From NCBI GenBank assembly GCA_041742375.1, contig JBGSIU010000044.1:2161-66160 (forward strand): 64,000 nt of DNA, written 5' to 3'. A program made the position numbers and the translations under genes. Positions 32,017-56,791 of this stretch are shown here, piece after piece. A model generated the notes under the pieces. The model was not told the DNA's origin and ran no database searches. It saw nothing but the letters and a program-made list of their open reading frames with translations. This DNA is from Patescibacteria group bacterium. GTDB lineage: Bacteria > Patescibacteriota > Microgenomatia > JBGSIU01. Numbering within the stretch: position 1 is the first letter of the stretch; every line of letters begins with the position of its first letter.

Positions 32017-32021
32017 ATTCT

Positions 32022-32786
32022 ATGAATATCAACTCAGCCATTGAATTTGAAAACGTTTCCAAGAAATTTTGTATCAGATTGGAAGAACAAATGTGGTATG
32101 GGTTTTCAGATATTCTAAGAAACATTTTAAACATGCGGAAAACTAACACTTTGCGCAAGGATGAATTTTGGAGCATTAACAAAGTCAATTTTAAAATTAA
32201 AAAAGGCGAATCAGTTGGAATTGTGGGACTAAACGGATCAGGTAAGAGTACAACACTCAAAATGATCAACGGAATTTTTATGCCGGATTTGGGAAAAATT
32301 TCTATAAGAGGAAGAGTTGGAGCATTGATTGAAGTTGGCGCCGGATTTCATCCATATTTAACAGGTAAAGAAAATATCTATTTAAGCGGCGCGATCTTTG
32401 GTATGCCGAAGAAATATATCGATCAAAAATTTGATGAAATCGTTGAGTTTTCAGAAATAGAAAAATTTCTTGATATGCCTGTTAAAAACTACTCAAGCGG
32501 AATGTATGTACGACTTGGCTTTGCAGTAGCCGCGCATATGCAAACAGACATTTTGCTTATCGACGAGATTTTTGCCGTCGGTGATGTTGATTATCAGAAA
32601 AAGTGCTTAACGAAAATCCAAGAATTAAAAAATATCGGTAAAACAATCGTATTTGTAAGTCACAACGAAAAAAACTTGAAAGAAATTTGCAGCAAAGGAA
32701 TATTGCTTCATGAAGGTAAAATGGTCTATCGTGGGAATATTGACGATGTTTTGAAAAAATATAAAGAGTATAATCTAAAAAATTAA
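32022..32786 (+). CDS. ABC transporter ATP-binding protein (Wzt/TagH-like, short form without a C-terminal carbohydrate-binding domain)
   Basis: Walker A 'GIVGLNGSGKST', signature 'YSSGMYVRLGF' and Walker B 'LLIDEIFAVGD'. The ATG at 32022 is preferred over the ORF-track start at 31968, which overlaps the permease. Confidence 0.85.
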   Translation: MNINSAIEFENVSKKFCIRLEEQMWYGFSDILRNILNMRKTNTLRKDEFWSINKVNFKIKKGESVGIVGLNGSGKSTTLKMINGIFMPDLGKISIRGRVGALIEVGAGFHPYLTGKENIYLSGAIFGMPKKYIDQKFDEIVEFSEIEKFLDMPVKNYSSGMYVRLGFAVAAHMQTDILLIDEIFAVGDVDYQKKCLTKIQELKNIGKTIVFVSHNEKNLKEICSKGILLHEGKMVYRGNIDDVLKKYKEYNLKN

Positions 32787-38225: not shown

Positions 38226-39155
38226 ATGGAACACAATATTAGCATAATAATCCCCATATATAATGAAGAGAAAGGTATCGATCGGCTTGTTAAAAATCTC
38301 AATGCATATTTTCAAAAGCACGCGAACTTAGAACCAGAAGTTATTTTTGTTGACGATGGATCAAGTGATAATTCGGTTAAAGCGATAAAAAAACTGAAAC
38401 ACGTAAATTATTCGGCAAAGCTTATCAAACTCACAAGAAATTACGGATCCCACTTGGCAATTCGTGCGGGGATACAAGTTGCCGCCGCGTCTGTGGTGAC
38501 GTTCATTTCAAGTGACCTTCAGGATCCGCTTTCATTAATCGGCAACATGTATGCTGAAATGAAAGAGGGCAATGATTTAATTTGGGCAAAAAGAAGAAAA
38601 ATCGAAAACAAATTTATCGCCAATTTTTCGACAAAACTTTATGCGAAATTAATGAAACTTTTTGTATTTTGTGATTTTCCCGAAAATGGATTCGATGTGG
38701 TTATGTTTAGCGATAAAATCAAAAATGAACTTAATCGAAATATTGAAGCAAACTCATCAATTTTTTTACAAATTATGAATATGGGTTTTCATAGCTCAAC
38801 AATTACATATGATAAAAAAGCGCGACAGATCGGCGGCTCAAAATGGAATTTCTCAAAAAAAATCAAATTATTAATCGATTCATTCGTGTCATTTTCTTAT
38901 GCGCCGATTAGGTTTGTGAGTGTGATGGGGCTAGTTCTTTCGACAGTGGGTTTTATCTGGGCGATATATATTTCCTTGAGGGCAATCATGTCAGGGAATT
39001 TAAATCCGGGATGGCCATCTTTAATTGCGATTTTAACCATTGGTTTTGGCGTGACCAATCTTTCGCTCGGGATTATCGCCGAATATTTATGGCGAACCCT
39101 AGATATTTCAAGAAAAAGAAGCGCCTTCTTAATCGATGAAATGATAAATCTATGA
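38226..39155 (+). CDS. GT2 polyprenol-phosphate glycosyltransferase with C-terminal TM helices (ArnC/GtrB/DPM1-like)
   Basis: 'ISIIIPIYNEEKGIDRLV...VIFVDDGSSDNS' and two C-terminal TM helices 'GLVLSTVGFIWAIYI...LIAILTIGFGVTNLSLGIIAEY'. Confidence 0.8.
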   Translation: MEHNISIIIPIYNEEKGIDRLVKNLNAYFQKHANLEPEVIFVDDGSSDNSVKAIKKLKHVNYSAKLIKLTRNYGSHLAIRAGIQVAAASVVTFISSDLQDPLSLIGNMYAEMKEGNDLIWAKRRKIENKFIANFSTKLYAKLMKLFVFCDFPENGFDVVMFSDKIKNELNRNIEANSSIFLQIMNMGFHSSTITYDKKARQIGGSKWNFSKKIKLLIDSFVSFSYAPIRFVSVMGLVLSTVGFIWAIYISLRAIMSGNLNPGWPSLIAILTIGFGVTNLSLGIIAEYLWRTLDISRKRSAFLIDEMINL

Positions 39156-40147
39156 AAAAACAAAAAATATTAATCACAGGTGGGGCCGGTTTTATCGGCT
39201 CTCACCTTGTCGATGAGCTTCTTGCAAAAAATTACATTGTGATCTGTTTAGATAATTTAGTAAATGGCTCTTTGAGTAATTTAAAAACTGCCCTGACTAA
39301 CCCAAATTTTCAATTTATCAAAGGAGATATTTTAAAAGAGCAGGACGCCTTAAAATCAACAAAAATAGTAGATATCGTGTTTCATTTGGCATGCCTTGGC
39401 GTTCGCCATTCGATCCATAGTCCGCTTGCGAATCATCGCGTGAATGCCGAAGGAACACTACGGATGCTTCAGGCGGCAAGAGTAAATAAAATAAAAAAAT
39501 TTTTTTATATCTCGAGTTCTGAAATCTATGGCGACGTGAAGCATTTCCCGATCGCGGAAGATTATGTCCCGGCACCAACTACGATATACGGCGCCAGTAA
39601 GCTTGCCGGCGAACATTATTCGATTGCATATAATAAATGTTACGGTTTAAAGACGACGATTCTGAGAATTTTTAATAACTATGGTCCGCGTGCCCATTAT
39701 GAAAGTGATGCCGGAGAAATTATTCCAAGAACAATTGTGATGGCCATATATAATAAACCACCAACGGTTTTTGGTGACGGGAAAACCACCCGTGATTATT
39801 TTTATGTGAGAGATACGGTGCGGGCGCTGGCTGACTTAATTAATTATCCCAATCTAACCGGTGAAATAATCAATATTGGCGCGGGGCTGGAAACGAAAAT
39901 AATCGATATTGTTAGAAAGATATTAAACTTGATGGATAAACAAAATCTTGAAATCATCCATGCCGGCAACCGCCCGGCTGATTTACCGAGATTGTGGGTT
40001 AATGCCAATAAATTTTATGAAATGACGCGTTTTGCACCGGCTTATGATTTCGAACAAGGCTTAAAAGAAACAATTGTTTATTATAAAAAATTATCTCAAG
40101 GAAAATTATTATATAAAAAAATTAAATTAAGAAACTGGGAGAAATAA
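39152..40147 (+). CDS. NAD-dependent nucleotide-sugar epimerase/dehydratase
   Basis: 'ILITGGAGFIGSHLVDELL', 'YGASKLAGE'. Confidence 0.85.
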   Translation: MKKQKILITGGAGFIGSHLVDELLAKNYIVICLDNLVNGSLSNLKTALTNPNFQFIKGDILKEQDALKSTKIVDIVFHLACLGVRHSIHSPLANHRVNAEGTLRMLQAARVNKIKKFFYISSSEIYGDVKHFPIAEDYVPAPTTIYGASKLAGEHYSIAYNKCYGLKTTILRIFNNYGPRAHYESDAGEIIPRTIVMAIYNKPPTVFGDGKTTRDYFYVRDTVRALADLINYPNLTGEIINIGAGLETKIIDIVRKILNLMDKQNLEIIHAGNRPADLPRLWVNANKFYEMTRFAPAYDFEQGLKETIVYYKKLSQGKLLYKKIKLRNWEK

Positions 40148-40148
40148 T

Positions 40149-41903
40149 ATGATTCCTGTCGCAAAACCATATTTGACAAAAACGGAGGCAGAAACGGCGG
40201 CGGATGTGATTCTGTCGGGATGGGTAACGCAAGGATCTAAAGTTGAAGAATTTGAAAAGAAATTCGCGAGCTTTGTCGGATCAAAATATGCCGTTTGTGT
40301 TTCAAACTGCACCGCCGCTCTCCATTTGTCGCTCATCGTTTCAGGTGTCCGCGCGGGTGATGAGATCATCTGTCCTTCGATGAGTTTTATTGCAACGGCA
40401 AATTCTATTCGTCACGCGGGAGGAGTTCCGGTTTTCGCAGATTGTGAAAAAGAAACATACAATATCGACCCAATAAGCGCAGAAAAATTAATCACCAAGA
40501 GAACAAAAGGTATTTTAATCGTCCATCAGATGGGTTGGCCGGCCGATATTGATGCCTTTAAAAAAATTTGCCTGAAGCATAGTCTCGTTCTAATAGAAGA
40601 TGCGGCCTGTGCCGTCGGCTCAGAATATAAAGGTAAAAAAATAGGTTCACATTCTGATTTGGTTTGTTTTTCATTCCATCCGAGAAAAGTAATCACGACT
40701 GGCGACGGGGGCATGATCACCACTTCAAACAAAGATTATTATGAGCGGCTAAAAAGATTAAGGCAACATGGAATGAGTGTGAATGACAGAGAGCGTCATT
40801 TTTCAAACAGGATTATTAATGAAGATTATCTTGAACTCGGTTATAACTATAGAATGACAGATATTCAGGCGGCCGTAGGCATTAAGCAACTTGAAAAGAT
40901 TAATTACTTGATTAAAGAGAGAACCAAATTGGCCGAGTTTTACAATAAAGCATTTGCAAAAACCGAAAAAATTATTTTGCCAAAAATTGATCCAAAAAAT
41001 AAACCAAACTTTCAGTCGTATCCGATCTATTTTGCCGGAATCAATGAAAACAAAAGAGATGAAATTATGCAAAAACTACTTGATGTGGGAATCAGTACTC
41101 GGCGCGGAATAATGCTTGCTCATAAAACATCCGCATATTGTAAATATAAACTTCGTGGCAAACTGTCTGCTTCCGAAGATTTATCATCAAAAAGCATTCT
41201 TTTGCCGCTTTATAACGGTTTTACAAAAAATGAAGCAAGCTTTGTTATTAAAAATTTGAAAAAAACGCTTGAGATAAACGAAACGGATAGATTTCAAAGT
41301 CTAAAAGGAAGAATGCCCCAAATTTTAGAACGACCTTTTCTTTATAATTTGATTCAAGATATTTTAGGTTATGGGTCAGAAAAACTTATTTTAAAAAAGC
41401 TAAAAGAAATATTTAGATTCGTCTCGCCAGATGAGAATATTCTTGATGTTGGGTGCGGACCAAGCTCCCGACTGTGGAAGCTTGGGTATAAACCTTTTGG
41501 TCTTGATATTTCAAAATCATATGTGTCAGAGTTTAATAAAACATGCGACAAAGCAAAACTTGGATCTGCCGACACCCTTCCTTTTAAAAAACAAGAATTT
41601 AAAATAGTTTGGTCGTTTGGTTTACTTCATCATTTGGAAGATAACGTTGCTCGAAAATCTATTTTAGAAATGATAAGGGTGTGTAAAAAAAATGGAGAGG
41701 TATTAATTTTTGACGCAGTTTTACCTGTTTCTTTTTGGTTTTATCCTTTTGCTTCTATAATTCGAAAATTTGACAGAGGATGCTATATGCGAACAGAAGC
41801 AGATTTTGACAGTATTCTTCCCCAAAAATCCAAATGGGAAAAAGAAAGGTATATTTATGCCAAAACGGGCCTTGAGCTTTTGATTCTGACTTATAGAAAA
41901 TAA
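40149..41903 (+). CDS. Fusion protein: N-terminal DegT-family aminotransferase, C-terminal class I SAM methyltransferase
   Basis: Residues ~1-370 are DegT-like. Residues ~400-584 contain 'ILDVGCGPSSRLWKLGYKPFGLDIS...GLLHHLED'. Confidence 0.75.
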   Translation: MIPVAKPYLTKTEAETAADVILSGWVTQGSKVEEFEKKFASFVGSKYAVCVSNCTAALHLSLIVSGVRAGDEIICPSMSFIATANSIRHAGGVPVFADCEKETYNIDPISAEKLITKRTKGILIVHQMGWPADIDAFKKICLKHSLVLIEDAACAVGSEYKGKKIGSHSDLVCFSFHPRKVITTGDGGMITTSNKDYYERLKRLRQHGMSVNDRERHFSNRIINEDYLELGYNYRMTDIQAAVGIKQLEKINYLIKERTKLAEFYNKAFAKTEKIILPKIDPKNKPNFQSYPIYFAGINENKRDEIMQKLLDVGISTRRGIMLAHKTSAYCKYKLRGKLSASEDLSSKSILLPLYNGFTKNEASFVIKNLKKTLEINETDRFQSLKGRMPQILERPFLYNLIQDILGYGSEKLILKKLKEIFRFVSPDENILDVGCGPSSRLWKLGYKPFGLDISKSYVSEFNKTCDKAKLGSADTLPFKKQEFKIVWSFGLLHHLEDNVARKSILEMIRVCKKNGEVLIFDAVLPVSFWFYPFASIIRKFDRGCYMRTEADFDSILPQKSKWEKERYIYAKTGLELLILTYRK

Positions 41904-41908
41904 AATAC

Positions 41909-42775
41909 ATGCAAAAATTAATTTTAGGTTCAGCTCAATTTGGACTGAATTATGGGATTAATAACAAAAACGGAAAAATTAAAATACCTGAAGTTTTCAA
42001 AATTCTTGATTACGCCATATCTCATGGAATTAAAGAAATCGACACGGCAACTGCCTACGGGAATGCTCAGCAAGTTATCGGTGAATATCTGAGAAAAAGA
42101 AAGCAGAGATTAAAAATCATAACAAAATGCAGTGGAACAAATGCTTCAGAGATAGAAAATGAAGTAAATACCAGTTTATCAAACCTAGGAATGGAGAAAA
42201 TCCACGGACTTCTAATTCACAAATTCGATAGTTATAAAAGAAATAAAGAAATATATAAAAAATTAATCGCATTAAAAAGAGAAAAATGTGTTGATAAAAT
42301 TGGTTTCTCTCTATATTTTCCGAAAGAAGCAGAATATTTGTTAAAACAAAAAATACCCATTGATATTTTGGAAATTCCGTATAACCTTTTTGACAGAAGA
42401 TTTGAGGTTTTGTTTAAAGAGTTTAAACGTAAAAAAATTAAAATTTACGCACGATCTATTTTTTTACAGGGACTTTTTTTTAAGAAAGAAAATGAGCTTG
42501 GAGTTTTTTTCAAGAGGATGGGAGACAGAATAAAATCTCTAAATGAAATTGCGTATAAAAATAGTTTGCCGCTTTCAGTAATTTGTCTTAATTTTGTTCA
42601 ACTAAATAAAAATATAGATAAGATATTGGTTGGGGTTGACAGCTTGGACAATCTAAAAGAAAATGCTGAGGCATTCAATGCAGTTAAAAAAGTAAAACGG
42701 ATATATAATGATTTGCTATGTCTAAAATTAGATAACGAAAAAATTATACTTCCTATTAATTGGGAAAAAACATGA
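41909..42775 (+). CDS. Aldo/keto reductase family oxidoreductase
   Basis: 'LILGSAQFGLNYGINNKNGK...IDTATAYGNAQQVIGE'. Confidence 0.65.
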   Translation: MQKLILGSAQFGLNYGINNKNGKIKIPEVFKILDYAISHGIKEIDTATAYGNAQQVIGEYLRKRKQRLKIITKCSGTNASEIENEVNTSLSNLGMEKIHGLLIHKFDSYKRNKEIYKKLIALKREKCVDKIGFSLYFPKEAEYLLKQKIPIDILEIPYNLFDRRFEVLFKEFKRKKIKIYARSIFLQGLFFKKENELGVFFKRMGDRIKSLNEIAYKNSLPLSVICLNFVQLNKNIDKILVGVDSLDNLKENAEAFNAVKKVKRIYNDLLCLKLDNEKIILPINWEKT

Positions 42776-43548
42776 AAATAAAAAATTTAGCAATTATTCA
42801 AGCTCGAGTTAGGTCAACAAGGTTGCCGGGAAAAGTGTTGCTGAAAATTTTTGACAAAACAATTCTTGAACATGTCGTAAGCCGTATTAAAAAATGTAGA
42901 TTAGTTAATCTTGTTGTCGTTGCAACAACAACAAATAGTGCTGATTCAAAAATAGCGTCTTTATGTAAAAAAAACAAAATCCCCATTTACCGAGGAAGTG
43001 AAGAAGATGTGCTGGACAGATATTATCAAGTGGCAAAGCTATATCACGCAAAAAATATTATTCGTATCACCTCGGATTGCCCATTGATAGACCCAATAAT
43101 AATTGATGATGTAATTAACGCTCATCTGAAATACAAAGTTGATTACACGTCAAACACTCTTCTCGAAAAATTTCCGGACGGAGAAGATATAGAGATTTTT
43201 AAATTTGCGACGCTTGAAAAAGCCTGGGTAAATGCAAAACTTAAATCAGAAAGAGAGCATGTTACGCCATATATGAGAAAACATTGTGAAATTTTTAAAC
43301 TTCATAGTGTTGGAGCTAAAAAAGATTATAGTGGAAAAAGATGGACACTTGATGAAGCAAAGGATTTTTTATTTATTGAAAAAATATATAAATATTTATA
43401 TAAAAATAGCAATTATTTCGGAATGAAAGAAATTTTGAAGTTATTATATATACGCCCCGAACTAGAAAGAATAAATTCAAATATTACCAGGAATGAAGGC
43501 TATCTCAAATCTTTGCAAAACGATAAAATAGTGAAAAATATATTATGA
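42772..43548 (+). CDS. Cytidylyltransferase of the SpsF/FlmC (CMP-KDO synthetase-like) family
   Basis: 'LAIIQARVRSTRLPGKVLLKI'. The ATG at 42772 gives an ATGA overlap with the upstream stop; the ORF-track start at 42760 is TTG. Confidence 0.7.
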   Translation: MKIKNLAIIQARVRSTRLPGKVLLKIFDKTILEHVVSRIKKCRLVNLVVVATTTNSADSKIASLCKKNKIPIYRGSEEDVLDRYYQVAKLYHAKNIIRITSDCPLIDPIIIDDVINAHLKYKVDYTSNTLLEKFPDGEDIEIFKFATLEKAWVNAKLKSEREHVTPYMRKHCEIFKLHSVGAKKDYSGKRWTLDEAKDFLFIEKIYKYLYKNSNYFGMKEILKLLYIRPELERINSNITRNEGYLKSLQNDKIVKNIL

Positions 43549-44855
43549 ACAAAACGCAAAAATTATACGAAGAGGCGAAGAAAATAATTCCCGGAGGTAC
43601 TCAGCTTTTGTCAAAACGCCAAGAGATGTATGCTCCGGGATTGTGGCCGGCATATTATAAAAAAGCTAAAGGTTGCGAGGTTTGGGATCTAGATGGAAAA
43701 AAATATTTAGACATGAGTTCAATGGGTATTGGTTCATGTATCCTGGGCTATGCCGACCCAGATGTTAACAGGCAGGTAAAAAGAGCAATTGATAAAGCTT
43801 CGATAACCACATTAAACTGTTTTGAGGAAGTTGAATTGGCAAAAATTTTGCTTGACCTTCATCCTTGGGCAGAAAAAGTCAGATTTGCGAGGTGTGGTGG
43901 TGAAGCGATGGCCATTGCGGTTCGAATTGCACGAGCAAAAACAAAGAAAGATGTTGTTTTATTTTGTGGCTATCACGGATGGCATGATTGGTATCTTTCG
44001 GCTAATTTAGCGGACGATAAAAATCTTGACGGTCATCTGCTCGCCGGTTTGAATCCTCTGGGTGTGCCGCGAGGACTTAAAGGAACAGCAATTCCTTTTC
44101 AATATAATAATGCGAAAGAATTTATAAGAGTTTTTAAAGAAAATATAAATAATGTAGGGGCAATTATTCTTGAGCCGATTAGAAATATTTACCCACACAA
44201 AGAATTTATCGACAAGATTCATACAGTCTGCCTTCAATATTCAATTCCGTTGATTGTCGACGAAGTTTCAACCGGATTCAGGCTTTGTCTTGGCGGCGCA
44301 CATCTTATTTTGGGCATTAAACCAGATATCGCGGTCTTTGCCAAAGCCATGAGTAACGGTTTTCCCATGGGAGCAATCATTGGGAAAAAGAATGTTATGA
44401 ATATCGCTCAGGATACATTCATAAGCAGTACATACTGGACTGAAAGAATTGGCCCAACTGCGGCAATTGCCACCATAAGTAAAATGAAAGCCCGTAAGGT
44501 AGATTCTCATTTAAAAAAGATTGGAGAATTAATCATGGAAGGCTGGAAAAAGGCAGCTAAAAAAAATAATATCAAAATTCATATTTCAGGATTTGCAACT
44601 CTTTCCCACTTTGATTTTGTTTGCGAGAACAAACTTGCGGCAAAAACATTTTTTGTGCAGGAAATGTTGAAAAAAGGATTTCTTGCAACAAACGGATTTT
44701 ATCCTTCGTTTGCTCATAAGGAAAAGCATGTGAAACGATACCTTTCAGCTTTAAATTTAGTATTTATCGGATTATCCGCTTCTCTTAAAAAAAGAGATTT
44801 GGCAAAAAGACTAAAGGGTCAGGTTTGTCAATCCGGATTTCAAAGATTAAATTAA
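43545..44855 (+). CDS. Class III PLP aminotransferase (glutamate-1-semialdehyde aminomutase-like)
   Basis: 436 aa with 'GYADPDVNRQVKRAI', 'VDEVSTGFRL' and 'AKAMSNGFPMGA' (PLP lysine region). Confidence 0.8.
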   Translation: MNKTQKLYEEAKKIIPGGTQLLSKRQEMYAPGLWPAYYKKAKGCEVWDLDGKKYLDMSSMGIGSCILGYADPDVNRQVKRAIDKASITTLNCFEEVELAKILLDLHPWAEKVRFARCGGEAMAIAVRIARAKTKKDVVLFCGYHGWHDWYLSANLADDKNLDGHLLAGLNPLGVPRGLKGTAIPFQYNNAKEFIRVFKENINNVGAIILEPIRNIYPHKEFIDKIHTVCLQYSIPLIVDEVSTGFRLCLGGAHLILGIKPDIAVFAKAMSNGFPMGAIIGKKNVMNIAQDTFISSTYWTERIGPTAAIATISKMKARKVDSHLKKIGELIMEGWKKAAKKNNIKIHISGFATLSHFDFVCENKLAAKTFFVQEMLKKGFLATNGFYPSFAHKEKHVKRYLSALNLVFIGLSASLKKRDLAKRLKGQVCQSGFQRLN

Positions 44856-44858
44856 ATT

Positions 44859-45935
44859 ATGCTTGAAATAGTTGAAAAAAAACATCGTAATTTCAATAAA
44901 ATGTGGAATTCCTATCTCCAAACCAATCCGACGGTTTCCTGGCGATATTTAAATGACTGGATTGTCTACCAAAAAGAGTATTCAAAATCGTTTCAAAAAG
45001 ACTTATCGTTTTTGATTAAAGAAGGACAGAATGTTTTAGCAATTTGCCCTTTGCTGATAGAGAATAATAATTCACATTTTCAAGCTTCATCAGGGGATGA
45101 TTATATGCCGTCGCCCGATGTTTCAATGAAATATGACAAAAAATTCAGAAAAAAAATAGAAAATTTTTGTTTTTACCAAATAGATCATTATGCGAAAACA
45201 AAAAAAATTAAAAAAATAAAGATGATGACAGATCCTTGTTCACAGAATTGGGATTTTAATCATTTAACGCAATACGGTTTTCTTGATTCGTCAATCGCCA
45301 CGGAAATTATAGATTTACGTAATTCAGTTTCTGAGATAAAAAGTTCCTTTAGGTCAAGTTATAAATCAATTATTAATCAATCATCAAAAATATATCAAAT
45401 TAAAATAATCGATTGTAAAAATCCGGAATATCAAATTCATGAAGAATATAGAAAATTACACCATAAATCAGCCGGCAGAATTACCAGAAATATAAAAACT
45501 TTTGATCTGCAGTTTGAATTGTTAAAAAAAGACAACGCGATGCTTATAGGTTTAATGTTTGAAAAGAAATTTATTGCCTTCAGCTATTTTTTCCATCATA
45601 ATAGAAATATTTATTATGCATCGTCTTCCGACAACCCCAATTTTAAAGTAAAAGTACCAATTGAACACCTAATCATTTGGTCGGCGATTGAATATTACGT
45701 AAACCGAAAGTTTTCAAAAATGGAGATTGGTTGGCAGCAATTCGGTCCCCAACTTTTTGATTTTCCATCGAACAAAGATATTAATATTTCCTTTTTTAAG
45801 CGCGGATTTGGAGGATCAACAGTTTCTCTATTCCGAGGGGTTAAATATTACGAAACAGGCTTGATGAAAAGAGAAATTAATGAGCAATCAGAAAAAATAA
45901 TTCAGTTATATGAAAAAACAAAACGTAAAAAATAG
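44859..45935 (+). CDS. Hypothetical protein, possibly a FemAB-like/acyl-CoA N-acyltransferase fold
   Basis: 358 aa, soluble, no strong motif recognised. Assigned by context only. Confidence 0.3.
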   Translation: MLEIVEKKHRNFNKMWNSYLQTNPTVSWRYLNDWIVYQKEYSKSFQKDLSFLIKEGQNVLAICPLLIENNNSHFQASSGDDYMPSPDVSMKYDKKFRKKIENFCFYQIDHYAKTKKIKKIKMMTDPCSQNWDFNHLTQYGFLDSSIATEIIDLRNSVSEIKSSFRSSYKSIINQSSKIYQIKIIDCKNPEYQIHEEYRKLHHKSAGRITRNIKTFDLQFELLKKDNAMLIGLMFEKKFIAFSYFFHHNRNIYYASSSDNPNFKVKVPIEHLIIWSAIEYYVNRKFSKMEIGWQQFGPQLFDFPSNKDINISFFKRGFGGSTVSLFRGVKYYETGLMKREINEQSEKIIQLYEKTKRKK

Positions 45936-46629
45936 TCCGGAAAAGTGGTACGAAAATTCATATCAGGAAATGGGTGATTCCGCTCAAAGGAAATACCCAA
46001 ATGAAGAATTGATCAGATTTCTAGGTCGGGATTTTTTTGGAACAAACAAAAAAGTCAGGCAAAAAATTAAAATGCTTGAAGTTGGTTGTGGAATGGGAGC
46101 AAATTTATGGCCGATTGCTCGCGAGGGATTCAGCACTTACGGGATTGACATTTCAGAAAAATCAATTAAATTAGCGAGAAAATATCTTATGTCTTGGGGA
46201 GTAAATGCCGATTTAAGAAAAGCGAACATGGTCAAACTTCCATACAAACAGAATTTCTTTGAGGTTGTCTTTGACGTATTTTCGTCTTATTGTTTAACAA
46301 CGAAAGAATACGAAATTTTTTTACATGAAGTCAGAAGAGTTCTTAAAAAAGGAGGGAAATTTTTTTCCTACACTCCTTCTGTAACGTCACAAGCATTTAT
46401 CAATTATTTGCCATCTGAAAAAATTGATGAGTTTACAATAAATGGTATTAAAAGAAAAACCTCCCCTTTCTATGGAAATGATTATCCATGTCGTTTCACC
46501 AATCAATTTTATCTTGCAAAAAAGCTTAAAGAAAATAATTTTAAAATAGAATATTTAGAAACAGTGTCCAGAAGTTATAATTCTCAATCGGAGAATTTTG
46601 ATTTTCTAGTTGTTGTTGCAATTAAATGA
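45910..46629 (+). CDS. Class I SAM-dependent methyltransferase
   Basis: 'MLEVGCGMGANLWPIAREGFSTYGIDISEKSIKLARK'. Confidence 0.75.
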   Translation: MKKQNVKNSPEKWYENSYQEMGDSAQRKYPNEELIRFLGRDFFGTNKKVRQKIKMLEVGCGMGANLWPIAREGFSTYGIDISEKSIKLARKYLMSWGVNADLRKANMVKLPYKQNFFEVVFDVFSSYCLTTKEYEIFLHEVRRVLKKGGKFFSYTPSVTSQAFINYLPSEKIDEFTINGIKRKTSPFYGNDYPCRFTNQFYLAKKLKENNFKIEYLETVSRSYNSQSENFDFLVVVAIK

Positions 46630-46663
46630 AAAAAACACATATATTATCCGTTGTGTGAATAAT

Positions 46664-47344
46664 ATGAAAAATAATATTCTTATCATTGCCGCTCATCCGG
46701 ATGATGAAGTTTTAGGCTGTGGTGGAACAATTGCGAGATTGTCGTCTGAAGGACAGGAAGTCAATGTTTTGATTTTGGGTGAAGGAATTACCGCAAGAGA
46801 CAGAAGACGAAACTCAGCAAAAAGAAAAAAAGAGATATGGACTCTGCATAAGCAAACGGATAAGGCAAATTTACTTCTCGGGGTAAAGAAAGTCATAAAT
46901 CTTGGTCTTCCCGACAATAGATTTGATGAACTTCCGCTTATTGAAATCGTGAAAAAAATTGAAGAAGTGAAAAATAAAATTAATCCAAAAGTTATTTTTA
47001 CCCACTATAGAAATGATTTGAATATAGACCACAGGACAACATACAGAGCAGTTATAACTGCAACACGACCGATTAAAGGAGAACTTGTCCAAGAAATATA
47101 TTCTTTTGAAACAATTTCATCCACTGAATGGAATTTTCCGCAAACATTTTCACCAAACGTTTTTTTTGATATTTCAAAATTTATCGATATCAAAATAAAA
47201 GCCATGGAGCAGTATCTAAGCGAAATCAAGAAAAACATCCATCCGCGCTCTTCAAGAGGAATAAAACTCGAAGCCGAAAGTCATGGAATTAAAACTGGCT
47301 TCGATTTTGTCGAGGCCTTTGAAGCAGTTAGGATCATGAAATGA
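46664..47344 (+). CDS. PIG-L/LmbE-family N-acetyl-sugar deacetylase
   Basis: 'ILIIAAHPDDEVLGCGGTIARL'. The ATG at 46664 is preferred; the ORF-track start at 46610 overlaps the upstream gene. Confidence 0.8.
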   Translation: MKNNILIIAAHPDDEVLGCGGTIARLSSEGQEVNVLILGEGITARDRRRNSAKRKKEIWTLHKQTDKANLLLGVKKVINLGLPDNRFDELPLIEIVKKIEEVKNKINPKVIFTHYRNDLNIDHRTTYRAVITATRPIKGELVQEIYSFETISSTEWNFPQTFSPNVFFDISKFIDIKIKAMEQYLSEIKKNIHPRSSRGIKLEAESHGIKTGFDFVEAFEAVRIMK

Positions 47345-48042
47345 ATACTATTTTGATTGTCACTATTAAATCTTGGAACATAAAAAATGCGCGAATTTTA
47401 AAACAAAAATTGAGTAAAAAGATAAAAGTAGAGATAATAACCGAAAAAGACGGATTAACGATTGAAAAAGTAAAAAAAATAGCCCCAAAATACATTTTTT
47501 TCCCTCACTGGTCGTGGATTGTTCAAAAAGAAATTTACGAAAACTTTTTATGTGTCAATTTCCATGAAACAGATTTACCATTTGGCCGTGGTGGAAGTCC
47601 CCTGCAAAATTTAATTTCGCGAAAAATTTATAAAACAAAAATCACAGCCCATAAGATAACCAAAGAAATTGACGCAGGGGATATTTATCTTCAAACGGGA
47701 ATAAACATCAAGAGAGGATCAGCACAAGAGTTGTTTTCGAAAATATCTAAAATCATTTTTTTCAGAATGATAACCGAAATTTTAGAAAAAGGCCTTTATC
47801 CTGAACCGCAAAAAGGGAAAATCGTTATTTTCAAAAGGCGAAAATCAGAAGAAAGCAATTTGGCAGAATTTAACGGAAAAAGTCTAAATAATTTATATGA
47901 TTTTATCCGTATGCTCGATGCCGAAGGATATCCAAAAGCGTTTATTAAATTAAATAATATGAAAATTCTTTGCTCTGATGTAAAATACGCTCATAATTCC
48001 CTTTTGGGAAAATTTGAAGTAGTCAAAAATGAAACAAATTAA
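47341..48042 (+). CDS. Formyltransferase-family protein (Fmt/PurN-like catalytic domain)
   Basis: 'VNFHETDLPFGRGGSPLQNLI' matches the HxSLLPxxRG formyltransferase signature. Confidence 0.65.
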   Translation: MNTILIVTIKSWNIKNARILKQKLSKKIKVEIITEKDGLTIEKVKKIAPKYIFFPHWSWIVQKEIYENFLCVNFHETDLPFGRGGSPLQNLISRKIYKTKITAHKITKEIDAGDIYLQTGINIKRGSAQELFSKISKIIFFRMITEILEKGLYPEPQKGKIVIFKRRKSEESNLAEFNGKSLNNLYDFIRMLDAEGYPKAFIKLNNMKILCSDVKYAHNSLLGKFEVVKNETN

Positions 48043-49078
48043 GATTGGCAACAAGACAATAAACGAAAATTCTCCGGTATATTTTGTGGCAGAAATGTCG
48101 GCCAATCATTTGCAGAAATATGACCTGGCTGTTGAAACGATTCATGCCATGAAAAAAGCGGGGGCTGACGCAGTTAAGCTTCAAACCTACACCCCTGATA
48201 CAATAACTCTTGACTGCGATAATAAATATTTTACACTCCATCAAGGCACAATTTGGGACGGACAAAAATTTTATGAGCTATATAAAACAGCATACACGCC
48301 ATGGGCTTGGCACTCGAAGCTTCAAAAAGTTGCCCACAACCTTGGTATGGAATTTTTTTCCACACCGTTTGACGAATCTGCAGTTGATTTTTTGGAAAAA
48401 TTAAAAGTTCCCGCATATAAAATTGCTTCTTTCGAAATTGTCGATATTCCCTTAATTGAAAAAACTGCCTCAAAAGGTAAACCCATGATAATTCCAACCG
48501 GTGTCGCTGGGATTTCTGATATTGCAGAAGCAGTCGAAGCATGCAGGCGTCAAGGAAACGATCAAATAATCCTTCTCATCTGCTCGTCATCATATCCTGC
48601 TTTGCTCGAAGAGATGAATTTAAAAACATTGCCGAATATGGCGAGTACTTTCGGAACTCTAATCGGTTTATCCGACCATACACTTGGGCAAACCGTTTCA
48701 ATTGCTGCAGTCGCGCTTGGAGCAAAAATGATAGAAAAACATTTTACCCTAGATAAGAAGCTTAGCGGTCCAGATTCAGCTTTTTCCTTAGAGCCAAAAG
48801 AGTTTAAAGAGATGGTTACGGCTGTTAGAGAAGCTGAAAAGGCATTAGGAAGAGTAACGTATGAAATAACTGATAAGAAAAGGAAAAACCGCGAACTTTG
48901 TCCCTCTCTTTTTGTGTCAGAAAATGTAAAAAAAGGAGATATTTTAACAAATAAAAATATTCGGTCCGTGAGACCGGGATTTGGTTTGCCGCCAAAATAT
49001 TTAAGCCAATTATTGGGTAAAAAAATGCGTTTCAATTTAAAAAGGGGCACGCCTCTTAAATGGGAGCATGTAGAATAA
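48029..49078 (+). CDS. NeuB-family nonulosonic acid synthase (pseudaminic acid synthase PseI-like) with a C-terminal SAF domain
   Basis: 'IGNKTINENSPVYFVAEMSANH...AGADAVKLQTY', 'IGLSDHTLG' and C-terminal 'IRSVRPGFGLPPKY'. Confidence 0.85.
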   Translation: MKQIKIGNKTINENSPVYFVAEMSANHLQKYDLAVETIHAMKKAGADAVKLQTYTPDTITLDCDNKYFTLHQGTIWDGQKFYELYKTAYTPWAWHSKLQKVAHNLGMEFFSTPFDESAVDFLEKLKVPAYKIASFEIVDIPLIEKTASKGKPMIIPTGVAGISDIAEAVEACRRQGNDQIILLICSSSYPALLEEMNLKTLPNMASTFGTLIGLSDHTLGQTVSIAAVALGAKMIEKHFTLDKKLSGPDSAFSLEPKEFKEMVTAVREAEKALGRVTYEITDKKRKNRELCPSLFVSENVKKGDILTNKNIRSVRPGFGLPPKYLSQLLGKKMRFNLKRGTPLKWEHVE

Positions 49079-49093: not shown

Positions 49094-49585
49094 ATGTTGT
49101 CTATAAATCATACTATTATCCGTACAGTCACGAAAGATGATTCGCAATTAATTTTGAGCATAAGAAACGATAAAGAGTTACGTAAATTTTCTTTTAACGA
49201 CAAAAAAATATCTAAACAAGCTCATAAAAGATGGTTTGATAAAATGATCTCAGAGGAAAATAATATCCATTTAATATTAGAATATAATTCTAAAACAGCC
49301 GGACTCATTCGTTTAGATATATTAAATATAGATAAAAAATCTGCTCTTGTAGGAATTATTGTAATTGTAAAAGAATTTAGAGGGAAGGGATTAGGAAAAA
49401 TTCTTTTTAATGAGGCAATTAAAAAGCTTCGTGAAACATTTCCCAATATAAAAAGCATTAAAGCATATGTTTTAACAACGAATGTAAAATCAATGAATTA
49501 TTTTTTAGCCCTAGGTTTTAAAAATAAAAAAAGTGTGTTAAGAAAAGGTAAAAGTGCAATCGAATATGAACTTACAAATATATGA
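49094..49585 (+). CDS. GNAT N-acetyltransferase, PseH-like
   Basis: 163 aa GNAT fold ('VGIIVIVKEFRGKGLGKILFNEAIK...KAYVLTTN'). Lies between the NeuB-family gene and the CMP-synthetase gene. Confidence 0.6.
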   Translation: MLSINHTIIRTVTKDDSQLILSIRNDKELRKFSFNDKKISKQAHKRWFDKMISEENNIHLILEYNSKTAGLIRLDILNIDKKSALVGIIVIVKEFRGKGLGKILFNEAIKKLRETFPNIKSIKAYVLTTNVKSMNYFLALGFKNKKSVLRKGKSAIEYELTNI

Positions 49586-50295
49586 ATAAAATATTGTTGA
49601 CAATTTGTGCACGAGGTGGGTCAAAAGGTGTTAAAAATAAAAATATAAAAAATTTAAACGGTTCTCCTTTAATTTACTACACGATTCAACAAGCACGAGA
49701 ATGGGGAAGAGCTAAACACATTGTGGTCAGTACGGATTCGGAAAAAATCGCAAAAATAGCAAAAACTTGCGGAGCTGAAGTTCCGTTTTTACGACCAAAA
49801 GAGCTTGCTGAAGATAAAAGTCCAAAATTACCAGTCATTCGCCACGCACTTCTGGAATGTGAAAAAATATATCGTGAAAAATATGATTTTGTTGTTGATT
49901 TGCAGCCGACATCGCCCGTGAGGAAAATTAAAGATTTAAAAAATTGCTTAAAGCTTTTTCTTAAAGCGAAACCGCACATGCTTATCAGTGTCTCAAATTC
50001 AGACAAAAATCCATATTTCAATTTAGTTGAACAAGTTAACAGAATGGAAATTCGTCTGTGTAAAAACGCCGACAGACAAATAACCAGACGTCAGGATGCG
50101 CCAAAAATTTATGCAATTAACGGATCGATTTACATCTATGACAGAAGTTATCTCCTGAAAAAGGAAAATCTTTCACCGATTAGCGACAAAACTGTCATAT
50201 ATCAAATGGATGAATACTCTTCAATTGATATAGATAATGAAATTGATTTCAGATTTGTTGAATTTTTAATTAAAGAAAAATATATTTCTATATAG
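49582..50295 (+). CDS. CMP-nonulosonate synthetase (acylneuraminate cytidylyltransferase family, NeuA/PseF/LegF-like)
   Basis: 'ILLTICARGGSKGVKNKNIKNLNGSPLIYYTI'. Confidence 0.8.
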   Translation: MNKILLTICARGGSKGVKNKNIKNLNGSPLIYYTIQQAREWGRAKHIVVSTDSEKIAKIAKTCGAEVPFLRPKELAEDKSPKLPVIRHALLECEKIYREKYDFVVDLQPTSPVRKIKDLKNCLKLFLKAKPHMLISVSNSDKNPYFNLVEQVNRMEIRLCKNADRQITRRQDAPKIYAINGSIYIYDRSYLLKKENLSPISDKTVIYQMDEYSSIDIDNEIDFRFVEFLIKEKYISI

Positions 50296-50298
50296 CAT

Positions 50299-51153
50299 AT
50301 GCTTCATAGGATTATCGCGCGACTTGATATTAAAGGTCCTAATTTGGTTAAGGGGATACATCTTGAAGGTTTGAGAGTGTTGGGAAAACCGGAAGAGTTT
50401 GCTAAATATTACTTTAATGAAGGAATTGATGAGTTAATTTACGTTGACACGGTTGCAAGTTTATATGGCAGAAATAGTTTGGATGATATTATTTCTAAAA
50501 CAGCCGCCAAAATTTTTATTCCACTAACGGTTGGTGGGGGTATACGTTCAATAGAAGATATAAAGAGAATTCTAAGAGCGGGGGCAGACAAAGTTGCGTT
50601 AAACACGGCGGCCATCAAAAACCCAAAAATTATAAGTGAGGCAGCCAATATTTTTGGTTCATCAACGATTACTGTTTCCATAGAAGCACTAAAACAAAAT
50701 AATGGTGAATATCTGGCATATACCGACAACGGAAGAGAATATACGGGGATTGAAGTTGTTGCCTGGGCAAAAAAAGTTGAAAAATTGGGAGCCGGAGAAA
50801 TTCTTTTAACCTCAATTGATAATGAGGGGACAGGGAAAGGATATGATTTGGAATTAATTAAAAAGGTCGCGCGTAGAGTTTCGATCACAACTGTTGCCTG
50901 TGGTGGAGCAGGTTCAATGAAAGATCTCTCCGAAGCGATTATTTTTGCAGGGGCCGATGCAGTTTCTGTTTCATCGATACTGCATTATAGTTATATCAAA
51001 AAACATAAACGCATTGATGGTTATGAAGATGAAGGGAATATCGAATTTTTAAAGAATGAAAATTTAAACCCGGATGCTTCTTTTGTTGAAGCCAATATTG
51101 AATCGATTAAATTTTTTTTATCTAAGAAAAAAATACCAGTACGTCTGTCCTGA
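50299..51153 (+). CDS. HisF-like cyclase subunit paralog (WbuZ/HisF2-type; acetamidino-group biosynthesis)
   Basis: 'IIARLDIKGPNLVKGIHLEGLRVLG...VDTVAS' with a (beta/alpha)8 HisF pattern. Sits in a glycan cluster next to HisH-like and WbuX-like genes. Confidence 0.85.
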   Translation: MLHRIIARLDIKGPNLVKGIHLEGLRVLGKPEEFAKYYFNEGIDELIYVDTVASLYGRNSLDDIISKTAAKIFIPLTVGGGIRSIEDIKRILRAGADKVALNTAAIKNPKIISEAANIFGSSTITVSIEALKQNNGEYLAYTDNGREYTGIEVVAWAKKVEKLGAGEILLTSIDNEGTGKGYDLELIKKVARRVSITTVACGGAGSMKDLSEAIIFAGADAVSVSSILHYSYIKKHKRIDGYEDEGNIEFLKNENLNPDASFVEANIESIKFFLSKKKIPVRLS

Positions 51154-51180
51154 AAATTATACCAATATTTATAAAAATTA

Positions 51181-51834
51181 ATGATTAAACCGAAAATCGC
51201 GATTATTGATTATAAAATGAGCAATTTATTCAGTATAAAACATGCCTGTGATTTTGTCGGCGGCGCGTCTTCCATCACTTCAGACAAAAAAGATATTAAA
51301 AATGCCGATGCAATCATTCTTCCGGGAGTTGGTGCCTTCGGCGCGGCAATGCAAAATCTAAAAAAGTTAGATTTATTAGATTTGATTATTCAGTTGGTTG
51401 AAAAGAAAAAACCTTTTATGGGCGTCTGTTTGGGAATGCAGCTCTTTTTCTCCCAAAGCGAAGAATTTGGGATTCATAAAGGACTTAATTTAATTCAAGG
51501 CAAAATAATGAGGTTTCCTTCATCTTATGGATCTAAAAACAAAATTAAAGTTCCACAAATCGGCTGGAATAAAATTTATCACGTTAAAAAGAAAAAAAAA
51601 CAATGGGGGCTTTCGCCATTAAGCGATGTGAAAGAATTTGCGTATATGTATTTTGTTCACTATTACTATTGTTGCCCAAGCAACAAAGAAGACGAAGTTT
51701 GCGCAACTTCTTACGAAGGGGTTGAATATTGTTCGGGCATCCTGCATAATAATATTTTTGCAGTACAATTTCATCCGGAGAAAAGTGGGCAGATTGGATT
51801 ACAAATTTACAAAAATTGGATACATAATTTATAA
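51181..51834 (+). CDS. HisH-like class I glutamine amidotransferase subunit (WbuY/HisH2-type)
   Basis: 'IAIIDYKMSNLFSI...AIILPGVGAFG', catalytic 'GVCLGMQL' and 'FAVQFHPEKS'. Confidence 0.85.
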   Translation: MIKPKIAIIDYKMSNLFSIKHACDFVGGASSITSDKKDIKNADAIILPGVGAFGAAMQNLKKLDLLDLIIQLVEKKKPFMGVCLGMQLFFSQSEEFGIHKGLNLIQGKIMRFPSSYGSKNKIKVPQIGWNKIYHVKKKKKQWGLSPLSDVKEFAYMYFVHYYYCCPSNKEDEVCATSYEGVEYCSGILHNNIFAVQFHPEKSGQIGLQIYKNWIHNL

Positions 51835-51840
51835 ATTAAT

Positions 51841-53064
51841 ATGAAAAAAGTTAAAACTAAATTTGGCTTGCCGAGAAAAGTTGTCTTTTGCACGAATTGT
51901 GTCATATCGAATCAGCGTCCAGCGTCATCAATTGAATTTTTCAACAAGAAGGAAAGCAAAAAAGCCACAATGCATATAGACGAGAGCGGAGTTTGCGATG
52001 CGTGTTTGGCCGCAAAGCAGAAAGAAAAAATTGATTGGAAAGAGAGAGAAAAAGAACTGATGAGACTGCTTGACAAATATCGCCGAAATGACGGGAATTA
52101 CGACTGTGTCGTGCCTGGAAGCGGAGGAAAGGATAGTGCTTGTCAAGCTCACCTTTTAAAATATAAATATGGCATGCATCCATTAACCGTGACATGGTCA
52201 CCAATCCTTTACACCGATTATGGATACAAAAATTTCAAAAATTGGATAGAAATCGGAGGTTTTGACAACATAGCTTTCAAACCAAATGGTCGGGTTATGA
52301 AGCTTTTAACAAAACTTGCGATTGAAAATCTTCTGCATCCATTTCATACTTTTATCCTCGGCCAAAAAAATTTAGGGCCCAAAATCGCTCTTAAATATAA
52401 AATCCCCCTCATTTTTTATGGTGAGAACGAAGCGGAATATGGAAACCCAATCGCAGACAACTCAACATCGTTGAGAACAAAATCATATTATTCCATTTCT
52501 AATCTCGATAATATTTTTTTAAGCGGAGTAAAAATCAGTAGACTAATCGAAAAATATAAAATCGCACTTTCGGATTTGATGGCATTTTTACCGGTGCATT
52601 ATAACGAGCTTAAAAATCGTAATTTACAAGTTCACTATCTCGGTTATTATCTTAAATGGGTTCCGCAAGAAGCATATTACTTTGCAGTTAAACACACAGG
52701 TTTTCAGCCCAGACCTTTTCGAACTCAGGGAACATATAGTAAATATAACAGTATTGATGATAAAATTGACGACCTTCATTATTACACAACATATATAAAG
52801 TTTGGAATTGGTAGGGCGACATATGATGCTTCTCAGGAGATCAGAAATAAACATTTAACTCGTGAAGAAGGTGTTGCTTTGGTAAAAAAATTTGACGGAG
52901 AATTCCCAGACAAGTATTTTCAGGAGGTAATGGATTACTTGGAAATTAAACCTGAATTTTTTCATAAACTTTGTAATAAATTCAGATCTCCGCATCTTTG
53001 GAAAATAGTTGGAAATCAATGGAGGTTACGGCACAATGTTTGGAATGGAGGTACAGACGATTAA
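51841..53064 (+). CDS. N-acetyl sugar amidotransferase (WbuX/WbpG-like, PP-loop ATP-pyrophosphatase)
   Basis: N-terminal Cys cluster 'CTNCVISNQRP...CDAC' and PP-loop 'VVPGSGGKDS'. Confidence 0.8.
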   Translation: MKKVKTKFGLPRKVVFCTNCVISNQRPASSIEFFNKKESKKATMHIDESGVCDACLAAKQKEKIDWKEREKELMRLLDKYRRNDGNYDCVVPGSGGKDSACQAHLLKYKYGMHPLTVTWSPILYTDYGYKNFKNWIEIGGFDNIAFKPNGRVMKLLTKLAIENLLHPFHTFILGQKNLGPKIALKYKIPLIFYGENEAEYGNPIADNSTSLRTKSYYSISNLDNIFLSGVKISRLIEKYKIALSDLMAFLPVHYNELKNRNLQVHYLGYYLKWVPQEAYYFAVKHTGFQPRPFRTQGTYSKYNSIDDKIDDLHYYTTYIKFGIGRATYDASQEIRNKHLTREEGVALVKKFDGEFPDKYFQEVMDYLEIKPEFFHKLCNKFRSPHLWKIVGNQWRLRHNVWNGGTDD

Positions 53065-53108: not shown

Positions 53109-54494
53109 ATGAAAGTATTATTGGTGGTTTATGATAATGATTCGTATATTTCTTGGTTTCCGCAAGGCTTGGCGTATGTGGCAACCGTTTTGAGGAAAAA
53201 AGGGCATGAGGTGACAATTTATAGCCAGGATGTTTATCATTGGAAAGAATCACATCTAAGAAAGTTCCTTGATAAAAGAAAATTTGACGTGGTCGGAGTT
53301 AGTGTGATCGCCGGATATTATCAATATCGTAAACTTCTTCAAATATCAAAAGCAATAAATCGATCAAAGTACAGACCTTTTTACATTCTGGGCGGTCATG
53401 GACCGGCACCTGAACCGGAATATTTTATGAAAAAAACTAAAGCTGATATCATTGTAATTGGAGAAGGTGAAATTACAACAGTCGAAATCATGGAAGCTTT
53501 GGAGAAGAAAAGAAAATTTTCTTCAGTGAAAGGAATAGCATACAGGGATGGCAAAAAAATTATCGTTAACGAAAGAAGACCATTAATCGCCAATATTGAC
53601 CAAATTGATTTTCCTGCTTATGATCTGTTTCCCTTAGATCACTATGCTTTGATGCGTACTCTTCCGGGTCTTGAGAATAATGAGCGTTGTATGCCGATGT
53701 TGTCTGGAAGGGGATGTATCTTTCAGTGCAATTTTTGTTACAGAATGGATAAAGGGTTCAGACCCCGTTCGATTAAAAATATTCTTGAAGAAGTGGAAAA
53801 GCTGCAGAAAGACTATGCCATTACTTCAATTGTTTTCTCAGACGAATTACTGATGAGTTCAGTAGACAGAACGATTGAAGTTTGTGAAGGATTGCTGAAA
53901 TCAAAAGTCAAATTCAAATGGGGTTGCAACGGACGCTTGAATTTTGCAAAGTTTGACGTTTTAAAATTAATGAAAAAAGCAGGCTGCACATTCATTAATT
54001 ACGGAATTGAATCAATGGATCAAGATGCTTTGAATGTCATGAAAAAAGGATTAACAGTTAAAATGATTCACGATGGCATTAAAAACACATTGCAGGTTGG
54101 TATCAATCCGGGTTTAAATATTATTTTTGGCAACATCGGTGAAACGAAAGCAGTCTTAAAAAAAGACGTTGAATTTCTCCTGAAATACGACGATCACGCG
54201 CAAAGAAGAACTATCCGTCCGGTGACACCTTACCCAGGTTCACCTCTTTATTATTATGCAATAGAAAAAGGATTGCTTAAAGATTGCCAAGATTTTTACG
54301 AGAATAAACATGTTAACTCCGATCTTTTAGCGGTTAACTTCACCAATATGTCAGACGACGAATTCCACAAGGCTTTATTTCGGGCTAATAAAAAATTGCT
54401 CACCGCATACTTCGAAGATTCTAAACAAAAAATCATTGAAAGCGCGAGACAACTTTACACAGGAAAAAATAATGCGTTTCGAGGTTTCCGCTAA
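53109..54494 (+). CDS. B12-binding domain radical SAM enzyme (class B radical SAM, methyltransferase-like)
   Basis: N-terminal B12-binding Rossmann region, then 'LSGRGCIFQCNFCY' (CxxxCxxC). 461 aa. Confidence 0.8.
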   Translation: MKVLLVVYDNDSYISWFPQGLAYVATVLRKKGHEVTIYSQDVYHWKESHLRKFLDKRKFDVVGVSVIAGYYQYRKLLQISKAINRSKYRPFYILGGHGPAPEPEYFMKKTKADIIVIGEGEITTVEIMEALEKKRKFSSVKGIAYRDGKKIIVNERRPLIANIDQIDFPAYDLFPLDHYALMRTLPGLENNERCMPMLSGRGCIFQCNFCYRMDKGFRPRSIKNILEEVEKLQKDYAITSIVFSDELLMSSVDRTIEVCEGLLKSKVKFKWGCNGRLNFAKFDVLKLMKKAGCTFINYGIESMDQDALNVMKKGLTVKMIHDGIKNTLQVGINPGLNIIFGNIGETKAVLKKDVEFLLKYDDHAQRRTIRPVTPYPGSPLYYYAIEKGLLKDCQDFYENKHVNSDLLAVNFTNMSDDEFHKALFRANKKLLTAYFEDSKQKIIESARQLYTGKNNAFRGFR

Positions 54495-55627: not shown

Positions 55628-55633
55628 TAATAT

Positions 55634-56785: not shown

Positions 56786-56791
56786 TTATAT

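Follow-up and report, generated by a model that had tools for sequence, protein, structure and literature searches.

The window analysed here is a 64,000-nucleotide stretch of contig JBGSIU010000044.1 from a Patescibacteria group bacterium, and the subject of the analysis is a pair of adjacent genes in its pseudaminic acid (Pse) cluster, which encode a PIG-L/LmbE-type deacetylase (PIG-L) and a formyltransferase-like (FT-like) protein. Together with the gene of a class I S-adenosylmethionine (SAM) methyltransferase they occupy positions 45910-48042 of the + strand, where three open reading frames (ORFs) run in the same direction directly 5' of PseI. The original prediction, made from the letters of the sequence, had placed these three genes here and all three ORFs are present. 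It had also named the gene that follows as NeuB; a synthase gene does follow, but it is identified as the pseudaminic acid synthase PseI and not as a generic NeuB. The four ORFs, with lengths in amino acids (aa), are as follows.

45910-46629, + strand: class I SAM methyltransferase, 239 aa (Pfam Methyltransf_25, 71 bits; Methyltransf_11, 65 bits; Methyltransf_31)
46664-47344, + strand: PIG-L/LmbE metal-dependent de-N-acetylase, 226 aa (Pfam PF02585, 94.4 bits)
47341-48042, + strand: FT-like protein, formyltransferase fold, 1ZGH/PF21553 family, 233 aa (PF21553; match to PDB entry 1ZGH)
48029-49078, + strand: PseI, pseudaminic acid synthase (TIGR03586, 483.7 bits against a cut-off of 340)

The PIG-L gene overlaps the FT-like gene by 4 nucleotides (nt), and the FT-like gene in turn overlaps that of PseI by 14 nt. 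A gap of 34 nt separates the methyltransferase from PIG-L, and the methyltransferase overlaps a FemAB-like gene on its 5' side by 26 nt. Promoter-like and terminator-like sites were found in the region at a frequency not above that in shuffled sequence.

The PIG-L ORF spans 46610-47344, with a TTG codon at 46610 as its upstream limit, and the true start is most likely the ATG at 46664 because exactly the 226-aa product is recorded in the protein collection. The score of this product for PF02585 compares with a gathering cut-off of 28.2 bits, and the motif AAHPDDE, to which the original prediction had drawn attention, lies at residues 9-15. Across 74 orthologues the residues H11, P12, D13, D14, E15, H114, D118, N120, D122, H123, R135 and R195 are invariant, and H123 aligns with the His of the HPDH motif of TT1542. 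From the structure alignment and general knowledge we take H11, D14 and H123 to be the metal ligands, and D13 the catalytic base, of MshB/BshB-type enzymes; judged by these residues, the window PIG-L looks catalytically competent. Among solved structures, TT1542, BC1534, diacetylchitobiose deacetylase and BshB come closest. With PIG-L, MshB, BshB and diacetylchitobiose deacetylase the window protein shares the AHPDDE motif, the His-Asp-His metal site and the overall domain, and it differs from MshB at the distal motif, which reads N-x-D-H in the window and H-P-D-H in MshB.

The best NCBIfam matches of the window PIG-L were the models for BshB1 and BshB2, as would be seen if this LmbE homologue worked in the bacillithiol or mycothiol pathway and had come to lie among sugar genes fortuitously. 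Both scores, however, fall far under the equivalog cut-offs (69.7 against 182.5 bits for BshB1 and 58.4 against 195 bits for BshB2), as does that for a third model of this kind (25.8 against 224 bits). The window protein belongs instead to a distinct orthogroup that is confined to nonulosonate clusters, its orthologues adjoining at least one nonulosonate or formyltransferase-fold gene in 115 of 119 related loci, and no BshA/BshC-like genes were found among the window proteins scanned. The sub-cut-off scores and the nonulosonate context rule out a role in bacillithiol or mycothiol metabolism; the context alone effectively refutes the chance neighbour, which we hold to be extremely improbable.

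The FT-like protein matches PF21553 (Formyl_trans_C_2) with 55.9 bits and belongs to a family of more than 7,000 sequences of ~231 aa each. Its nearest solved structure is PDB 1ZGH, a structural genomics entry from Clostridium thermocellum that is itself in PF21553 (E=3e-70; 57% identity, counted over the full-length alignment). The two proteins have the same length and the same invariant motifs, but the position of Asn73 is occupied by Val in 1ZGH. An AlphaFold model of the window protein (predicted local distance difference test score, pLDDT, of 93) was compared with solved structures using Foldseek, which gave a template modelling score (TM) of 0.93 to 1ZGH and of 0.65-0.76 to VioF, Rv3404c, WbkC, ArnA, Fmt and HypX, each of these six with a probability of 1.00; WbtJ falls within the same TM range. 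The model has the N-terminal Rossmann-like and C-terminal beta subdomains of the formyltransferase fold, and its nearest structural neighbours after 1ZGH are sugar 4-N-formyltransferases, so that structural modelling, suggested as a check alongside the original prediction, supports the assignment of the fold.

The sugar 4-N-formyltransferases act on amino sugars in glycan pathways. VioF, Rv3404c, WbkC, WbtJ and the N-domain of ArnA resemble the window protein in their two-subdomain fold and similar size (TM 0.65-0.73), and the His and Asp of the formyltransferase triad align. The FT-like family is set apart from these enzymes by an identity of 15-20%, by the lack of the catalytic Asn, by a shortened N-terminal subdomain, by an invariant extra Asp (in the motif TDLP) and by its obligate pairing with a deacetylase. 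Among 312 distinct family members His75 and Asp111 are invariant, 310 members carry the extra Asp (D78) three positions C-terminal of the His, and an LP-G-GG-P loop is likewise invariant in the family; the formyltransferase motif quoted in the original prediction, HETDLPFGRGGSPLQN, lies at residues 75-90. The window protein fails the methionyl-tRNA formyltransferase equivalog TIGR00460 (45.6 against 201.5 bits) and is shorter (233 aa against ~315 aa). Because of the constant Pse-cluster context, the deposited name of 1ZGH, methionyl-tRNA formyltransferase, is almost certainly a misnomer.

A profile scan for FT-like proteins, using one genome per species, matched at least 584 relatives, and gene neighbourhoods were counted in the 38 loci in which the FT-like gene is flanked by 6 kb or more on either side. 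In every one of the 38 the FT-like gene abuts or overlaps a PIG-L gene on the same strand, with the PIG-L frame opening before the FT-like stop codon. These loci span Campylobacterota, Aquificota, Clostridia, Planctomycetota, bacteria of the candidate phyla radiation and archaea, and they carry genes for PseI (36 loci), PseC (35), PseB (33), PseH (30) and PseG (27). In the flagellin glycosylation islands of Sulfurimonas autotrophica and Persephonella, for example, the order is PseB-PseC-(PseF)-PseG-FT-PIGL-PseH-PseI-Maf. The FT-like gene precedes PIG-L in all 38 genome loci, whereas the window has the reverse order, PIG-L before FT-like, which was also seen in one metagenome locus. The window pair is a slightly atypical member, with its reversed order and unique Asn, of a very widespread putative tailoring pair.

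The other Pse genes of the window, together with further genes nearby, are listed below (HMM, hidden Markov model; CMP, cytidine monophosphate).

32823-33839, + strand: PseB, step 1 of the Pse pathway (TIGR03589, 483 bits, above cut-off)
33836-34978, + strand: PseC, step 2 of the Pse pathway (TIGR03588, 512 bits, above cut-off)
44859-45935, + strand: FemAB-like protein, 358 aa (NCBIfam TIGR04421, FemAB family, E=3e-30, below cut-off)
49094-49585, + strand: PseH-like GNAT N-acetyltransferase (TIGR03585, 71 bits, below the cut-off of 93; E=1e-30 with an HMM built from PseH-like ORFs of related loci)
49582-50295, + strand: PseF-like CMP-sugar synthetase, a cytidylyltransferase (TIGR03584, E=8e-42, below cut-off; Pfam CTP_transf_3)
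50299-53064, + strand: HisF-like protein, HisH-like protein and WbuX N-acetyl sugar amidotransferase (TIGR03573, WbuX, 362 bits against a cut-off of 203)

PseB and PseC, together with PseI at 484 bits, thus all exceed their equivalog cut-offs. The HisF and HisH assignments are based on the ORF translations and on the similarity of ORFs in related loci. Amidotransferases of the WbuX type convert an acetamido group to an acetamidino group.

PIG-L, MshB and BshB each remove the 2-N-acetyl group of a GlcNAc-type residue, and to our knowledge this regiochemistry is shared by every characterised enzyme of the PIG-L family. Together, the pairing and the Pse context suggest that the PIG-L and FT-like proteins of the window form a two-gene Pse tailoring module that carries out a deacetylation followed by a re-acylation, probably with formyl; we give this reading a probability of about 0.5. 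As a zinc-type de-N-acetylase, PIG-L would remove the 2-N-acetyl group inherited from uridine diphosphate N-acetylglucosamine (UDP-GlcNAc), on the nitrogen that is to become N5 of Pse, a step that would match the shared regiochemistry. The FT-like protein would then re-acylate the freed amine, most probably with formyl from 10-formyl-tetrahydrofolate. The pair usually sits beside PseG, and its substrate could be either the UDP-sugar or the free hexose. PseI would condense the edited hexose with phosphoenolpyruvate and the PseF-like enzyme would activate the product. With the PseH-like acetyltransferase acting on N7, a Pse5Fo7Ac-type sugar would be expected, which the WbuX/HisH/HisF amidotransferase might modify further.

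Deacetylation followed by re-derivatisation has precedents in LpxC/LpxD and in NodB/NodS/NodA. The logic is shared, in that a de-N-acetylase exposes the 2-amine of GlcNAc, which is then N-methylated and/or N-acylated, but NodB (family CE4) and LpxC (a fold of its own) come from protein families unrelated to the window pair, and their substrates and products differ. The N-acyl swapping put forward in the original prediction is therefore retained in part: the deacetylase and the formyltransferase-fold protein do form a pair within Pse clusters (38 of 38 loci), formyl is the group that we infer to be transferred, and the methyltransferase, which had been counted as a member of the unit, has to be taken out of it for the reasons given below.

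A reciprocal profile scan for PIG-L on metagenome contigs yielded 42 flanked loci with orthologues of 40-64% identity. An FT-like gene adjoins PIG-L in 16 of these, a gene of a second formyltransferase-fold family (FTpar) alone in 3, and neither in 23. The FT-like protein depends on PIG-L, and PIG-L does not depend on the FT-like protein, because the former is found with PIG-L in 38 of 38 loci and PIG-L with it in only 16 of 42. Such an asymmetry is the expectation if PIG-L makes a free amine and its partner uses it. That the FT-like gene is never found without PIG-L would also fit a transient protection modelled on the ArnA/ArnC/ArnD pathway, a well-established precedent, in which the FT-like protein would formylate an amino intermediate, either pulling the aminotransferase equilibrium or marking the intermediate, and PIG-L would later deformylate it, leaving a final sugar that is free of formyl; a glycosyltransferase of family 2 (GT2) resembling ArnC is encoded in the window at 38226-39155 (NF007986, E=3e-36, below cut-off). 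The 23 PIG-L loci with no formyltransferase-fold neighbour, however, rule out deformylation as a general role of PIG-L. PseH already renders the amination irreversible, and ArnD belongs to a different deacetylase family than PIG-L, and we regard transient protection as quite improbable.

The scanned neighbours of the PIG-L genes that lack an FT-like partner are diverse. They include class I methyltransferases (5), WbqC-like proteins (4), two acyltransferases of the hexapeptide (LbH) type, an ATP-grasp ligase accompanied by a HAD hydrolase, a GNAT protein, a PhyH dioxygenase, an HMGL-like protein, a 2-hydroxyacid dehydrogenase, and an APS-kinase-like protein with a sulfotransferase. The WbqC-like proteins (PF08889) are encoded directly 5' of the PIG-L orthologue in all four of their loci.

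Several observations weigh against an exchange of acetyl for formyl at N5, and the first of them concern the FT-like protein itself. The Formyl_trans_N domain (PF00551) is matched with 27.0 bits against a cut-off of 26.1, and over model positions 66-161 of 181 only. The Asn/His/Asp triad, which was to be checked according to the original prediction, is complete in the window protein, where N73, H75 and D111 align to Fmt and VioF, but not in its family: 311 of the 312 members lack the catalytic Asn of the N-x-H...D triad and have V (237), L (30), A (19), I (16) or G (9) at this position, and the window protein is the sole one with Asn. Its Glu76 is found in 3 of the 312, with Met in 284. The window protein is an outlier within its family by virtue of N73 and E76, and the position of these two residues, flanking the catalytic His, suggests that the active site was remodelled specifically in this lineage. 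The family without Asn may use a modified mechanism or another donor, or may perform no formyl chemistry. Furthermore, no biochemical or genetic study of the FT-like family was found in the literature. No published characterisation of the two genes together came up in searches that combined PIG-L, LmbE or formyltransferase with pseudaminic or nonulosonic acid, and papers on the flagellin glycosylation islands of Clostridium and Geobacillus give formyltransferases as annotations only or leave them unmentioned.

The absence of the Asn, which stabilises the oxyanion, the appearance of a new invariant Asp at D78, the marginal match to the Pfam N-domain and a literature devoid of functional work on the family would all be in keeping with an FT-like protein that is not a formyltransferase, and that transfers another group, acts as a hydrolase or serves as a non-catalytic partner presenting the substrate to PIG-L. 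The invariant His75, Asp111 and LP-G-GG-P loop nevertheless argue for a conserved active site, and the fold matches that of the sugar N-formyltransferases at a TM of ~0.7. In E. coli glycinamide ribonucleotide transformylase, Asn106 is reportedly replaceable with partial activity. Formyl transfer by the FT-like family is plausible, and we consider a protein without formyl chemistry to be rather unlikely.

The second point against the proposed exchange concerns the pathway. PseG was not detected in the 64 kb using an HMM from 51 PseG sequences (E<=0.01), with ~5 kb of the contig lying outside the window, and the pathway as read in the window is incomplete for this reason. The missing PseG may be encoded in those ~5 kb or elsewhere in the genome, or it may have been replaced. 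The FT-like and PIG-L proteins were considered as the replacement and this was ruled out, as PseG adjoins the pair in 27 of the 38 genome loci.

The third point comes from Candidatus Kuenenia stuttgartiensis, for which CMP-nonulosonates with one free and one formylated amine have been described; in its nonulosonate cluster, genes for a deacetylase and a formyltransferase are flanked by legB/F/C-like genes and a neuB-like gene, and both steps are proposed by the authors to occur at the level of the nucleotide sugar (SugarBase preprint of 2026, bioRxiv 10.64898/2026.04.20.719630). In so far as it ties, independently, such a pair of genes to nonulosonates with a formylated amine, the preprint also speaks in favour of N-acyl editing by the window pair. 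The window has the same gene types between early pathway genes and a NeuB-type synthase, the two clusters being likened by gene type and not by sequence. The Kuenenia cluster differs in that it is described as legionaminic acid (Leg)-like and in that its product keeps a free amine. No match named Kuenenia was present among the 120 matches listed in a homologue search seeded with a planctomycete FT-like protein. Since the Kuenenia sugar keeps a free amine, the formyl group there is not on the nitrogen that the deacetylase has freed. Applied to the window, this would mean that the FT-like protein formylates the 4-amino group made by PseC, the future N7, competing with PseH or replacing it, and that PIG-L leaves N5 free and positively charged (Pse5N7Fo). 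That the nearest structural relatives are 4-N-formyltransferases would fit such a scheme.

The distribution of the genes speaks for a different role of the FT-like protein. PseH-type acetyltransferases co-occur with it in 30 of the 38 loci and in the window. The place of the N7-acyltransferase is taken in these 38 loci by PseH only (27), by FTpar only (5), by both (3) or by neither (3), with the FT-like gene constant throughout; as it is PseH and FTpar that largely alternate, the FT-like protein is not a simple substitute for the N7 acetyltransferase. Its strict reliance on PIG-L would also go unexplained if the two enzymes acted on different nitrogens. A formylated N7 beside a free N5 is in our judgement unlikely for the window locus, and re-acylation of the nitrogen freed by PIG-L is preferred.

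FTpar proteins are ~215 aa long, carry the motif HNLVVHES-LP-GKGW and have no Asn at the canonical position. Their genes, seen in twelve of the related loci, occupy the usual place of PseH and largely alternate with it.

The methyltransferase belongs with another partner. Its orthologues (41-57% identity) adjoin FemAB-like genes, as in the window, in five related loci, namely those of Pseudoalteromonas and Odyssella, a Pse island of Lachnospiraceae, a metagenome locus and an unrelated locus without sugar genes. The window FemAB-like protein is homologous to the methyltransferase-adjacent ORFs of the Pseudoalteromonas and Odyssella loci and of the locus without sugar genes. The FemAB-like/methyltransferase pair therefore recurs with or without PIG-L and FT-like genes nearby, and both inside and outside nonulosonate clusters. 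A single unit of methyltransferase, PIG-L and FT-like protein, as in the original prediction, was consequently ruled out, the constant partner of the methyltransferase being the FemAB-like gene. Because its orthologues consistently adjoin that gene, the methyltransferase forms a separate two-gene module with it, and this is a second, independent tailoring module of the same operon. The pairing suggests an aminoacyl transfer that is followed by methylation. Methyltransferases of several kinds recur beside PIG-L in related loci, and N-methylation of the freed or newly attached amine is possible.

A broader scheme can be drawn in which the PIG-L orthogroup is a general 'N5-editing hub' of Pse and related nonulosonic acids that lays bare the GlcNAc-derived amine for lineage-specific partners, the 1ZGH family is a distinct N-transferase and not a classical formyltransferase, and the hub has been joined in the window with the FemAB-like aminoacyl-transferase and the methyltransferase. 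The family without Asn would in this case work with its His/Asp dyad and the new invariant Asp, and the product of the window locus would be an undescribed Pse with an N-methylated and/or N-formylated aminoacyl group at N5, resembling the Leg5GluNMe7Ac of Clostridium botulinum. As a whole we hold this scheme to be doubtful.

The window as a whole is a long surface-glycan locus on one strand, which encodes glycosyltransferases, membrane proteins of the PMT_2 and DUF2079 families and a transporter pair of the ABC-2 type. Repeated GT2 glycosyltransferases with PMT_2/DUF2079 proteins, and the Wzm/Wzt-like ABC-2 transporter pair, are found at 2991-13437 and 31168-32786. No flagellin or Maf gene was found among the window ORFs scanned, which indicates that the Pse genes here serve a surface polysaccharide and not flagellin glycosylation.

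On the 5' side of the region lie a LegB-like dehydratase (39152-40147) and, just after it, a 584-aa fusion (40149-41903) of a DegT/PseC-like aminotransferase (residues 1-375) with a C-terminal SAM methyltransferase-like domain. These are followed at 41909-44855 by three genes, which encode an aldo-keto reductase, a cytidylyltransferase resembling SpsF and a class III aminotransferase of the GSA-aminomutase-like kind, and then by the FemAB-like protein. The trio, complete or incomplete, is met again in Pse clusters from unrelated phyla and was seen in nine of the related loci; in the Sulfurimonas locus the SpsF-like gene is the sole cytidylyltransferase seen. On the 3' side, following the amidotransferase genes, a B12-binding radical SAM protein is encoded at 53109-54494. 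Relatives of this protein (24-33% identity) are present in nine Pse/PIG-L loci, which hints at a tailoring step by radical chemistry, be it C-methylation or another. The stretch 54665-57811 holds a second nonulosonate set, which consists of a NeuB-type synthase (TIGR03569, 378 bits, just under the cut-off), a NeuC-type hydrolysing 2-epimerase (400 bits, above the cut-off) and a 'carbamoyl phosphate synthase-like' protein of the ATP-grasp type. Two distinct nonulosonic acids are probably produced by the locus in the window.

On flagella, capsules and S-layers, the N-acyl groups of pseudaminic and legionaminic acids are of many different kinds, and they shape immune recognition, phage attachment and surface charge. 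Variants at N7 are explained by exchange of the PseH-type acyltransferase, but for the replacement of the N5 acetyl group inherited from UDP-GlcNAc we know of no established enzymology. The PIG-L orthogroup occurs in Pse clusters across many phyla and offers a concrete candidate for such editing of N5. The pairing with PIG-L also provides a hypothesis for the function of the orphan structural-genomics entry 1ZGH, and it makes it probable that the name 'methionyl-tRNA formyltransferase' has been given wrongly to thousands of database entries.

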